From NCBI GenBank assembly GCA_964515545.1, contig CAZERI010000002.1, forward strand, positions 1-55,611: DNA of 55,611 nt, written 5' to 3'. Source of the DNA: an uncultured Gammaproteobacteria bacterium (GTDB lineage Bacteria; Patescibacteriota; Microgenomatia; Levybacterales; UBA12049). The notes under the pieces were generated by a model. It did no database searches. It saw nothing but the letters and a program-made list of their open reading frames with translations, and had not been told where the DNA came from. The translations under genes and the position numbers were made by a program. This document shows, in pieces, positions 31,362 through 35,096 of the stretch. Numbering within the stretch: the stretch's first letter is position 1; each line of letters opens with the position of its first letter.

Positions 31362-32150
31362 TTAGCCTTCATTACGAGCGAATTGGCCAGTCTCTTTTGA
31401 TTTAGAGAATAATTTTTGAAATATCCAGGTACAAATTATTATATAAATAATATTCTCTATAAGTGCAATTCCCATAAGGTGCCAGTTGATTGATGGATTA
31501 TGAATAGCTGCTCTAGCTGCTTCAAAGACATAAGTTGCTGGGAAAAGATACGCCATTTCTCGTAATGGGAATGGTAGAATACTAACAGGGAAAAAGGCTG
31601 CAGTTAATGGTTGGAATAAAAATGTTACTCCCCAGGCAAGTGCTTGGATTCTCGTACCATATCTGAATATAAGTCCGATGATAATAAGTCCAGTTGAGAT
31701 ACCAAAAAGTATCATATTAATAAAGAAAAGCAGTAAGTTACTAATGCCTAACTGAAAGATATTAAAGTGGAAAATATAGAGAGATAGGAGAGTACTTGTC
31801 AAAAAAACGATAAAGGCTTTTATCGATCCTGAAATGACAAAAGCAGCATTATACTCAACAATTGAGATTGGGCTAATAAAAAGATTACTCAGGTTACGTG
31901 CCCAAATACTCCATAAACTTCCAACAGAAATTGAGTACTGTGTGATATAAAGAAGTTGCCAGAGGATCATTCCCAAAAGTAAAGGATAAGCATTTGCAGG
32001 ATTACCCTTCCCTGACAAGTAAAGTGAAAGAAATCCAAATACTGTTATATTAATTAATGGAAAGAAGACTACGTCTACCATCACTTCAAGTGACCGTTTG
32101 GTAATGTAATATTCTTGTATAAGGATTCCTGAGATACGTCTAATTGACAT
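31362..32150 (-). CDS. ABC-2 type exporter permease
   Basis: 6-TM layout, FFPVSILP; start refined to ATG 32150 overlapping ATPase stop. Confidence 0.85.
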   Translation of the reverse strand: MSIRRISGILIQEYYITKRSLEVMVDVVFFPLINITVFGFLSLYLSGKGNPANAYPLLLGMILWQLLYITQYSISVGSLWSIWARNLSNLFISPISIVEYNAAFVISGSIKAFIVFLTSTLLSLYIFHFNIFQLGISNLLLFFINMILFGISTGLIIIGLIFRYGTRIQALAWGVTFLFQPLTAAFFPVSILPFPLREMAYLFPATYVFEAARAAIHNPSINWHLMGIALIENIIYIIICTWIFQKLFSKSKETGQFARNEG

Positions 32151-33096
32151 TTTTTCCCCTTTCTTCAAATTTACCGCGAGCAATATGCAGGAAAAAATCT
32201 TCGAGTGTAGGTTTTTTAATTTCGATATCTGTTATCCAGATATCATTTTTACTTAATCCAAAGATTAGTCCTGGTATTAATTTTTCTTGGGTTTCAATAA
32301 CAACGGTAAATTTATTTGAGAATGAATACTCTTGCTTCTCTGCAGTTAAGTATTGCTCAATTGTTTTTGTCTTGCCGTCAAAGGAAACGATAAGCTTAGC
32401 ATTTGTGATCTTCTTTGTTAAATTTAGAGGGCTATCTTCAGCAACAATATTTCCTCTATCAAGAAAAATAACTCTATCACATATTCTCGTAATTTCATCC
32501 ATATTATGACTGGTGAAAAGTAATGAGATATTTCTGGATTTCTTTAAGTCTTGGATAAGAGAAAGTGTAGTATCCGCAACATCCGGATCAAGGGAAGCAG
32601 TCGGTTCATCAAGAAGTAAGATGTCAGGATCATTTAATAAAGACTTAATAATATTTATCCTTGTTTTTTGTCCTGCAGACATATGATAGTAGATCTTATT
32701 AAGTAGATCTTCACTTTTAAAATACTCAATTAACTCCATAATTTTTTTCTTAGGGTTTTTAACAGAATATAGCCGAGCGAATACAAGGAGATTTTCCATT
32801 ACAGACATTCTCCCTTGAAGAGTATTAAAAGCAGAAGCAAAATTTATCCGCTGCAGGGATTCTTCACGATGCTTTTGGAAATCTTTACCAAAGTAGTTAA
32901 TTGTTCCTGATGTAAGACTCGTTATGCCAAGAAGCATTTGAATGGTAGTGGTCTTTCCTGCTCCATTTGGACCTAAAAATCCCACGACCTCACCTTCCTT
33001 AACTGAAAAGGATATATTATTAACAGCTGTAAAACCACTTCCAGCAGGACCATAATGTTTAACGAGATTTTTCACCTCAATAACTGATTTTGCCAT
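32140..33096 (-). CDS. ABC exporter ATP-binding protein
   Basis: [25 protein letters not shown]-terminal PTLED. Confidence 0.92.
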   Translation of the reverse strand: MAKSVIEVKNLVKHYGPAGSGFTAVNNISFSVKEGEVVGFLGPNGAGKTTTIQMLLGITSLTSGTINYFGKDFQKHREESLQRINFASAFNTLQGRMSVMENLLVFARLYSVKNPKKKIMELIEYFKSEDLLNKIYYHMSAGQKTRINIIKSLLNDPDILLLDEPTASLDPDVADTTLSLIQDLKKSRNISLLFTSHNMDEITRICDRVIFLDRGNIVAEDSPLNLTKKITNAKLIVSFDGKTKTIEQYLTAEKQEYSFSNKFTVVIETQEKLIPGLIFGLSKNDIWITDIEIKKPTLEDFFLHIARGKFEERGKNVN

Positions 33097-33103
33097 AGTA
33101 ATA

Positions 33104-33226
33104 ACTGCGGAGTATCTTTCCGTTCAGAGGAATCTAGAAGGTAGTACTGGATCTCGAATAGTTTTGCTTACAATTCATGATGTTGATCTACCCCTTCTCC
33201 TCAGAAAGGGTATGTAGCTCGGCAGT
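33104..33226 (-). ncRNA. Candidate structured 5' leader RNA (no known family recognised)
   Basis: Terminal helix ACUGC/GCAGU begins at predicted +1; two mutually exclusive pairings of AGAAGGGGUAG; see findings. Confidence 0.4.
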
Positions 33227-33232
33227 AAAATT

Positions 33233-33261
33233 ATTATACGGATTGTAAGAAGAGAATGCAA
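33233..33261 (-). promoter_or_regulatory. Sigma70-type promoter of ABC exporter
   Basis: TTGCAT-17 nt-TATAAT on minus strand. Confidence 0.7.
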
Positions 33262-33262
33262 G

Positions 33263-33703
33263 CTATACGGAGGGAGTGTTGCTTGTGTAATCAATATATT
33301 TTCTGATAGTTGCTTCAACTGTCTCGGCAAGCGGCAGCTTTAATGCTTCATCAGGGGTTAACCAATGATACTCTGATAACTCATCGTTATCGAGCTTTGG
33401 CTCATGTTGATCTGTAGTTAGCAGGTTAGCAAAATGGATGAGATGAGCTGGGCGATAAAAATCCTTGGAGTGTATCAATTCGCCTGAGAGAAGTTGAATA
33501 ATATATTTTGTATCTAAATTAGTCTCTTCTTTCATTTCTCGGATCGTAGCATCTTTTATACTCTCTCCGAGTTCGATATGTCCTCCAGGAAGGCACCACT
33601 TATTAGACCACTTGTATGATTTAACTAGCAACAATTTACCATCAGGTCTTTTAATAAGCCCGGCTGTACCTACTTCAATACCTTTTGGAAATACATCATT
33701 CAT
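33263..33703 (-). CDS. Nudix hydrolase
   Basis: Nudix box GGHIELGESIKDATIREMKEETNL; start ATG 33703 or 33715. Confidence 0.9.
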   Translation of the reverse strand: MNDVFPKGIEVGTAGLIKRPDGKLLLVKSYKWSNKWCLPGGHIELGESIKDATIREMKEETNLDTKYIIQLLSGELIHSKDFYRPAHLIHFANLLTTDQHEPKLDNDELSEYHWLTPDEALKLPLAETVEATIRKYIDYTSNTPSV

Positions 33704-35096
33704 GGGCAATCTCATGCAGTCTTTTTAGTAAATATTCTTTGGTATTTTTAGATAGATCTTCATCAACCTCCTCAAAGAGTTTTTGTAAAATTTCTCCAAT
33801 TTTTTTTCCAGGCTTCATCTGCAGCTCTTCCATAATATCGTTACCATCTATTGCCAAATCATTGATTGAGAAAGGAGCTGGAGCGAGCTGTTCCTCAACG
33901 CGCTTCTTAAAAAGTTTTAATCTCCAGCTTTCCGCAGTCTGTGTGCCACCACCAAGTCGGTCGCCGATACGCAGATCCATCATGTCTTTCACGTTTTCCA
34001 CTCCAATTCTTCTAATAAATCTTCTCACTGCACTATCAGTAATATGCTCATCAACAGTAAACATATGCCATCTAATAAGCTTAGTAACTTTTTCTCGATC
34101 TTTTCTTGAGAATCGCAGACGAGCGCAGATAGTACTTGCCATCTTACTTCCAACAATTTCATGGTTATGGAAAATCACATAGCCATCTTTGTCCTTATCT
34201 GCAACTCGGGGTTTGGCTATATCATGAATTAGTGTTGCAAATCGTACAATTGGATCTTGAGAAGGGCAAAATTTTAAGGAAAAAACATTATGTTCAAAGA
34301 CATCTGTTGTGTGATGACGGCCAGGTCTTTTCTGAGAGATATTTATTCCTTCCAGGAGTTCTGGAAGAATATATTTAAGAAGACCCGTATTTTTCAAAAG
34401 CATGATTCCATCATAGGGGTGATCACTAGTAAGAATTTTTATTAGTTCGTCACGTATTCTTTCCTGAGCTATTTTTTTGAGTAAAGGTGCATCTTCAATT
34501 ATCGCCTCAAGAGTTACTTTTTCAATAGAAAACCCAAGCTGAGTGGCGAAACGAATTGCTCGTATCAGTCGGAGAGCGTCTTCCTTAAAACGCTCGTTAG
34601 GATTTCCGACTGCTCTAATGATATTTTTTTTCAGATCTCCATGTCCTTTAAAAGGATCGATAAGCAGTGATGGAAGATCCTGTAGAGTATCAATGCTATC
34701 TTTATGAAGATTTGCCATATCGATAGCCATTGCATTGACGGTAAAATCGCGCCGAGACAGATCTTCATCTATCGTCTGCCCCCAGCTAACTTTATCTGGA
34801 TGACGGCTATCAGAGTAGCCGTGCTCTGTCCTGAAGGTAGTTACCTCAACAACTATTTGCTCAGGGGTATCCTTGTTAAGAACTATTCCTACGGTACCAA
34901 AGGTATTGTCATAAAAACTGTCAGGGAAGATTGATTGTATCTCCTCAGGAGTTGCATTGGTGGTGAGATCCCAATCTTTCACTTCTTTTTTTAGAAGCAT
35001 GTTACGGACAGATCCGCCAACAAGATAGATAGAGTAACCGCTTTTTTGAAACTGTTTGGTTATATCAATAACTGAGGCTGGAATATGTTCAATCAT
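33696..35096 (-). CDS. cca: tRNA nucleotidyltransferase (CCA-adding class II) with HD domain
   Basis: GGSVRN, DWD, RRDFTVNAMA, EDALRLIRA, ERIRDEL, HDIAK. Confidence 0.9.
   Translation of the reverse strand: MIEHIPASVIDITKQFQKSGYSIYLVGGSVRNMLLKKEVKDWDLTTNATPEEIQSIFPDSFYDNTFGTVGIVLNKDTPEQIVVEVTTFRTEHGYSDSRHPDKVSWGQTIDEDLSRRDFTVNAMAIDMANLHKDSIDTLQDLPSLLIDPFKGHGDLKKNIIRAVGNPNERFKEDALRLIRAIRFATQLGFSIEKVTLEAIIEDAPLLKKIAQERIRDELIKILTSDHPYDGIMLLKNTGLLKYILPELLEGINISQKRPGRHHTTDVFEHNVFSLKFCPSQDPIVRFATLIHDIAKPRVADKDKDGYVIFHNHEIVGSKMASTICARLRFSRKDREKVTKLIRWHMFTVDEHITDSAVRRFIRRIGVENVKDMMDLRIGDRLGGGTQTAESWRLKLFKKRVEEQLAPAPFSINDLAIDGNDIMEELQMKPGKKIGEILQKLFEEVDEDLSKNTKEYLLKRLHEIAHE

Follow-up and report, generated by a model that had tools for sequence, protein, structure and literature searches.

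A structured 5' leader with two competing pairings and an upstream ORF precedes an ABC-2 exporter operon in a member of Candidatus Levyibacteriota

The window analyzed here is a stretch of 55,611 nucleotides from a 1.04-Mb genome of Candidatus Levyibacteriota (CPR), with occurrence in activated sludge and wastewater. The source genome (G000) is 98.9% complete. The minus strand carries, in this order, a NUDIX gene that ends at 33263, a promoter, a 130-nt leader, an ABC ATPase gene, an ABC-2 permease gene and a YqeY-like gene. The ATPase gene (32140..33096, minus strand) encodes 318 aa, matches PF00005 at 1.7e-31 and has no SD before its ATG. Its best NCBIfam match is the drrA subfamily, below the cut-off of that model, and the PDB comparison returns an ABCA-like NBD. 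The permease gene (31362..32183, minus strand) matches PF01061 at 1.4e-7, and its start codon is uncertain. The first-pass annotation had named an ABC-2 exporter, and judged by these domains the operon downstream of the leader is indeed an ABC-2 (DrrA/ABCA-like) exporter. The NUDIX hydrolase gene (33263-33715, minus strand) lies between the gene for the CCA-adding enzyme and the leader in the source genome and in its congener G008. The cca gene itself is directly upstream of the leader or of the ATPase in G002, G005 and most of the family.

The exporter promoter has a -35 box TTGCAT (33256..33261, minus strand) and a -10 box TATAAT (33233..33238, minus strand), with a spacer of 17 nt. These are the boxes from which a transcription start near 33226 had been proposed, and they are found where the first reading had put them. 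The -10 box is invariant in four homologs. The -35 box has the form cTTGCa/TTGTAT with 17-18 nt spacing in G008, G002 and G005, and the same form is present at most long-leader loci of the family. The promoter is absent from the list of a generic sigma-70 scan, and TTGCAT matches TTGACA in 3 of 6 positions. Since the generic scan misses the promoter, the analysis relied on the conserved cTTGCa-17-TATAAT and on the promoter profile of the genome itself.

Genome-wide, TATAAT-like hexamers form a sharp peak at -12 from the ATG (74 of 807 long ORFs, against a background of 2-6). SD-like words at -15..-11 are just about two-fold enriched in the same 807 long ORFs, and the 16S tail is the canonical CACCUCCUUUCU. 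A hexamer peak 12 nt before the ATG implies that transcription begins 7 nt past the hexamer and that leaderless mRNAs are the norm. The latter had been claimed for most operon-first genes of the window, and the count given here extends it to the genome. Applied to the exporter promoter, the geometry of the leaderless genes' promoters would place +1 at about A33226, the first base of the closing stem, and this putative start is used below. The RNA-labelled runs consist of sparse contigs; one 167-nt piece covers 33068-33234 and another crosses the promoter, and start, end and strand are not readable from contigs. The promoters of leaderless genes in the source genome are mostly of the extended -10 type, with T at -15 in 69%, G at -14 in 62% and a weak TTG at -35. 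The promoter of the exporter leader is unlike these, being without the TGn and keeping a good cTTGCa -35 box across genera.

The full 5' UTR (33097..33226, minus strand) is 130 nt long; the 123 nt of the first-pass annotation are the part enclosed by the closing stem. Folding energy against shuffled sequence had been set beforehand as a refuting test, and the leader folds better than its dinucleotide shuffles (MFE of -33.7 vs -24.4 +/- 3.4 kcal/mol; z of -2.7; 0 of 200 shuffles equal). The MFE fold is an unbranched rod in four parts. Its closing stem pairs the strand ACUGC.GAG (ACUGCCGAG, nt 1-9; 33218..33226, minus strand), which begins with the +1 base and is invariant in four homologs, with CUC.GCAGU (CUCCGCAGU, nt 115-123; 33104..33112, minus strand), which ends 7 nt before the ATG at 33096. 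Both strands had been predicted at these positions. Further in, CCC.UUC (nt 17-23) pairs with GAACGG (nt 102-107; 33120..33125, minus strand), of which CGG is invariant in the four homologs. GAGGAG pairs with UUCCUC, and AGGGGUAG pairs with CUACC.UUC. The latter helix is topped by a predicted apical hairpin (nt 46-76; 33151..33181, minus strand) that holds the AUG of an upstream ORF (uORF) in its stem and contains the block CAUGAAUUGUA.GCAAAACUAUUC, invariant in G000, G008 and G002. The small stems GAAU/AUUC and UUCC/GGAA listed in the first reading are present as well.

The alternative fold concerns a purine-rich, SD-like strand (GAGGAGAAGGGGUAG, nt 25-39; 33188..33202, minus strand). Its stretch +29..+39 can pair either upstream with +15..+24, across a GAGG loop, or downstream with +83..+91. 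The predicted 3' partners are CUACCUUCU (nt 83-91), which overlaps the end of the uORF, and the anti-SD-like pyrimidine box UUCCUC (nt 95-100), and both lie within 33127..33144 (minus strand). Upstream pairing gives the 5' hairpin H1 (UACCCUUUCU, GAGG loop, AGAAGGGGUA; nt 15-38; 33189..33212, minus strand). H1 has 10 bp and is formed by the first 46 nt alone at -14.4 kcal/mol. Mutually exclusive pairings of this strand had been proposed, and both are found: with H1 enforced, the leader folds at -31.0 kcal/mol, which is 2.7 kcal/mol above the rod at -33.7. Enforced H1 excludes both middle rod helices, and the closing stem stays.

BLAST and covariance model R1, applied to 40 and 150 relatives, find the leader in three congeners only (G008, G002 and G005). 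In each of these it directly precedes the orthologous ATPase and follows the same promoter, so that the conservation upstream of orthologous exporters, for which a homolog search had been suggested, is present. The leader of G008 is 93.1% identical to that of the source genome, that of G002 73% and that of G005 66% (40.5 bits and an E-value of 4.7e-7 with the covariance model). Between the source genome and G008, the ATPase CDS has a nucleotide identity of 78.6%, well below that of the leader, and all nine leader differences (9/9) fall outside the rod helices and outside H1. In the four homologs, the rod has 86.5% of its cells paired (slid controls 31-49%) and H1 has 92.5% (slid controls for rod and H1, 31-63%). 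Covariation in the four homologs amounts to one compensatory pair per structure, which shuffles match, and four sequences are too few for statistics. A pattern scan of genome_contigs returns the same three genomes and no further ones. Three stretches matched in metagenome_contigs are not recognized by the covariance model and were discarded as chance matches.

The syntenic ATPase is of two classes within this one genus. The ATPase of G000 and G008 shares 56-70% identity with the class carried by 19 genomes outside the genus but within the family, and only 48-49% with that of the congeners G001, G002, G005 and G006 (loci L030, L032, L031 and L029). The leader of G002 keeps its 73% identity though its ATPase is only 47-48% identical in protein. 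Since the ATPase classes differ and yet the leader is common to G000, G002 and G005, the comparison suggests that the transporter genes were replaced in situ downstream of a retained leader.

The family was represented by 194 genomes, 86 of which have the ATPase ortholog, and the upstream regions of these were compared. The locus takes three forms. About 22 of the 86 loci have a predicted promoter 105-154 nt upstream in the promoter scan and therefore a long leader, about 15 are leaderless (TATAAT-N6-ATG), and the remaining loci abut the upstream cca gene. The sequences of the long leaders are very different, and what they have in common is their architecture. A covariance model of the four homologs (R2) gives no significant match to leaders of other genera; the leader of G108 is matched end to end at an E-value of 0.72. 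Because the model fails beyond the genus, family-wide homology is not proven and the likeness is one of architecture. A MAFFT alignment of 11 leaders drawn from several genera is structurally inconsistent, and RNAalifold finds no consensus in it.

The architecture can be described by pairing and by position. In 18 leaders, the first 40 nt and the last 50 nt form a cognate duplex averaging -20.7 kcal/mol, against -15.3 kcal/mol for non-cognate combinations (0/20000 permutations). The sequence comparison indicates that this 5'/3' closure co-varies between lineages, and it is the best-supported feature of the leader. The 5'-proximal hairpin is stabler than its shuffles (Stouffer z of -3.8; P<0.05 in 8 of 17 groups). 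In leader groups that are mutually related, defined by predicted promoters and scored with thresholds and windows set after inspection of the data, an SD-like 4-mer (the GGAG box) is found at +23..+31 in 11 of 16 groups (0.87 expected), and a pyrimidine, anti-SD-like Y-box at -42..-31 from the main ATG in 10 of 16 groups (0.4 expected). G104 is left out of the later statistics because its main start codon is not fixable. Almost none of the family's leaders has an SD before the main ATG.

The uORF of the source genome (33134..33178, minus strand) has 14 codons and a TAG stop and reads MNCKQNYSRSSTTF*. It had been noted at these coordinates as a 14-aa ORF and is kept in the three congeners. G008 and G002 also have 14 codons; the ORF of G005 has 12 codons in another frame, with the same stop position. 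Across the family, and subject to the same limits of related groups, predicted promoters and thresholds set after inspection, a uORF of at least 9 codons with an AUG start is present in 14 of 17 leader groups (6.0 expected, P of 6e-5; antisense control 6/17). When relatives are collapsed, the enrichment is 9 of 12 against 4.3 expected (P of 0.006). The AUG lies at +37..+59 across leaders, and the stop is within -8..+14 nt of the Y-box in 12 of 14 cases. The distance from the stop to the main ATG is 27-51 nt (37 in the source genome), and that from the SD-like strand to the uORF AUG is 12-18 nt in the source genome and 5-26 nt in other genera. No conserved uORF peptide or arrest motif is found among genera or within the genus (MNCKQNYS.., MIVYQASKDLIS, MIRTTQKITSNL, MTYC..). 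Since the peptide is not conserved and its frame shifts within the genus, drug-specific nascent-peptide stalling is unlikely, and so is the peptide-specific form of the ribosome-stalling control considered in the first reading. The leader of G013 (L035:1370-1500) starts with AAUG, and its 20-codon uORF could be translated leaderless from the 5' end. The leader of G115 (L093:322-459) starts with ACUGCCGAA, without a 5' AUG, and keeps the inner uORF MQR.YLVLTNTQ... Taken together, the leader is a genuine, selected, structured cis-element with two competing pairings and a uORF.

The preferred reading, with a probability of roughly 40%, is that the leader is a peptide-independent, uORF-gated switch between rod and hairpin that tunes translation of the SD-less exporter gene. 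In the rod state, the 5' end would pair with the segment next to the start codon, and the purine strand GAGGAGAAGGGG with UUCCUC about 37 nt before the ATG. In the hairpin state, the upstream pyrimidine strand would capture the purine strand in the 10-bp H1 and the pyrimidine-rich 3' third would be largely single-stranded. The short uORF lies between both partners and ends at the pyrimidine box, so that a ribosome reading to the stop would have to unzip the rod. The purine strand would then be free to drop into the 5' hairpin. The opened pyrimidine-rich 3' third could act as a standby platform for SD-independent initiation or for re-initiation at the exporter ATG. The output of the exporter gene would then follow how much the uORF is translated, and through it ribosome activity or a condition altering it, whatever the peptide sequence. 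Promoter geometry, conservation, both pairings, uORF enrichment and positional coupling are shown by the sequence analysis and back this switch. Translation of the uORF, the direction of control and the signal are the parts that we infer.

Several findings count against such a switch. The SD-like strand is badly spaced for the uORF in the source genome, at the 12-18 nt given above, and is not well spaced everywhere. The closing stem survives in both folds, and the purine strand is base-paired in the rod and H1 states alike. The energy gap between rod and hairpin ranges from 0 to 10.8 kcal/mol among leaders, and a uORF is missing from three leader groups. Opening the main initiation region is computed to cost about 10.0 kcal/mol, and a ribosome placed on the uORF stop lowers this only to 8.6 kcal/mol, so simple thermodynamic unmasking is not predicted. 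That simpler model was set aside as unsupported, with most of the opening cost still to be paid and the closing stem in both states.

The rival that survives best treats the leader as structure only. It would be a 5' stabilizer against 5'-end-dependent RNases, or an RNase III site, that sets mRNA half-life, and the uORF and H1 would be incidental. The 5' UTR of ompA is a 5' stabilizer stem-loop of this kind. As in ompA-type stabilizers, the 5' terminus here is base-paired with few or no unpaired nucleotides (0 in the source genome and 0-4 nt in most leaders, for a criterion of about 4 or fewer), and an effect on half-life is a prediction only. Unlike in ompA, the partner of the 5' end lies more than 100 nt downstream beside the start codon, and the helix encloses a uORF. 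The persistence of the closing stem in both states and the co-varying long-range closure, the feature with the best support, also fit a stabilizer, as do the last 7-12 nt before the ATG, which are unpaired in every fold of the family leaders. However, structure alone leaves unexplained the uORF enrichment, the stop codon abutting the pyrimidine box, the position-fixed SD-like and anti-SD-like boxes and the over-stable competing 5' hairpin. This explanation is considered rather unlikely.

A ligand, an ion or an RNA-binding protein could also select between the rod and a two-hairpin fold, as in the riboswitch-like control that had first been suggested. Two conserved competing folds upstream of an exporter, and several blocks invariant in the four homologs, are what such an element would show. 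The Rfam 15 E-value scans proposed for this purpose, run with the leader of the source genome and 10 leaders from other genera, give no relevant match to a known family; the element could hence be new. The conserved bases are in helix strands and in the SD-like and anti-SD-like boxes, outside any junction, and this speaks against a ligand pocket. No conserved junction, multi-helix or otherwise, and no conserved loop core is found in the unbranched rod. The apical third differs in sequence and length among genera, and the covariance model does not reach other genera, unlike models of typical riboswitch aptamers. CsrA, the obvious GGA-binding candidate, was considered for the GGA in the H1 loop and rejected, since the 98.9%-complete genome yields no CsrA. 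A ligand or protein switch is therefore regarded as unlikely.

Another possibility is Rho-dependent attenuation of the tnaC type. A ribosome paused at the uORF stop would cover a C-rich segment and block Rho loading, and transcription would otherwise terminate before or inside the ATPase gene. The genome has rho (547 bits, above the cut-off), the uORF stop abuts the pyrimidine-rich box, and the 3' half of the leader is rich in C and poor in G. No intrinsic terminator is found within 32900-33500 and no U tract follows any leader helix; attenuation by an intrinsic terminator was dropped for this reason, and the lack of such a terminator is in keeping with Rho. The C-rich tract near the uORF stop (-8..+14 nt) is, however, short and base-paired in the rod, and the lack of conservation in the uORF peptide does not fit sensing of the TnaC type, which depends on particular residues. 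This mechanism is quite improbable. An independent 123-nt small RNA, which had been offered as an option and which a closed rod does resemble, or a chance fold in a spacer with no function, is very improbable. The stretch down to the ATG holds no terminator, and only 7 nt separate the closing stem from the start codon. In about 22 loci the leader keeps a length of 105-154 nt relative to the ORF start, between G000 and G008 it has diverged less than the CDS, and the element is single-copy in the genome.

Known leaders provide partial parallels to the uORF-gated switch. Translational attenuation leaders of the ermC, cat and cmlA type precede genes for resistance or export and contain a short uORF with pairings that exclude one another. 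The leader described here resembles them in its length (about 130-140 nt), its short uORF and the exclusive pairings around it, and the position of the ribosome would be expected to choose the fold. It differs in that the main gene has no SD to sequester, the closing stem survives both folds, the uORF peptide is not conserved and shifts frame, and the host, a CPR bacterium, has leaderless mRNAs for the most part. ErmCL is the example from the ermC leader (PMC5499644). The BmrB leader peptide controls the bmrCD operon of Bacillus subtilis, which encodes an ABC exporter, by ribosome-mediated transcription attenuation (PMC4191407). In both cases an ABC exporter operon follows a leader with a short ORF, and expression of bmrCD is set by the translation state of that ORF. 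The BmrB system has an intrinsic terminator/antiterminator pair, whereas nothing like a terminator hairpin with its U tract is seen here, and the exporter class here is ABC-2/DrrA-like.

Bacterial leaders with uORF/uRBS-mediated translational coupling and RBS occlusion are treated in PMC13285730, and termination-reinitiation and 70S scanning in the review PMC9031893. The likeness to these is a peptide-independent uORF that would deliver or admit ribosomes downstream, and the leader's single SD-like element stands before the uORF and not before the main gene. The distance from stop to ATG (27-51 nt, 37 in the source genome) is long for direct coupling, and the pair of SD-like and anti-SD-like boxes is here embedded in a rod that closes the leader. 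The leader is functionally most like the erm/cat attenuators and the uORF-coupling leaders, yet it is without the sequestered SD, the arrest peptide and the terminator that define the comparators. It is most likely an undescribed uORF-containing structured leader, so far restricted to one Levyibacteriota family. A bolder reading, which is rather doubtful, makes it a CPR-specific class of regulatory leader, a bistable gate for loading ribosomes onto an SD-less internal start, which would be built from an SD-like box and two boxes mimicking the anti-SD, placed around a peptide-independent uORF; a variant of the same speculation would see in the rod/hairpin pair the expression platform of a ligand sensor, so far undescribed, for the exporter substrate.

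Almost nothing is known of post-transcriptional control in CPR/Patescibacteria, which are not culturable alone and have few recognizable regulators. The leader is one of few candidate cis-regulators in the CPR and is well supported as a selected element. Its comparative signatures are the co-varying closure, the position-fixed complementary boxes and a uORF that is kept whatever its peptide. The exporter operon is widely conserved, in a lineage whose mRNAs are normally leaderless, and the leader offers a compact, testable model for the use and control of an SD-less internal start codon, transplantable to cell-free or heterologous reporters. The three regulatory forms of the one locus in the family (long leader, leaderless and co-transcribed with cca) amount to a natural experiment on how regulation is gained and lost.

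Two further arrangements were seen among the leaders. Over the first ~95 nt, a stretch that includes the uORF MIRTTQKITSNL*, the leaders of G006 (L029) and G001 (L030) hardly differ, but their last ~35 nt are unrelated. Each 3' end is able to pair, in its own way, with the common 5' end, and a recombination breakpoint may lie inside this leader. In genus g90, the leaders of G105 and G165 (L076 and L073) have a mini-ORF, AUG-AAU-UUA-UGA, that overlaps a second uORF, MT(Y/H)C..., by AUGA, giving a start-stop overlap inside the leader. The mini-ORF of G105 lies five nt after AGGAG. G144 (L084), of the same genus, has the second uORF only.
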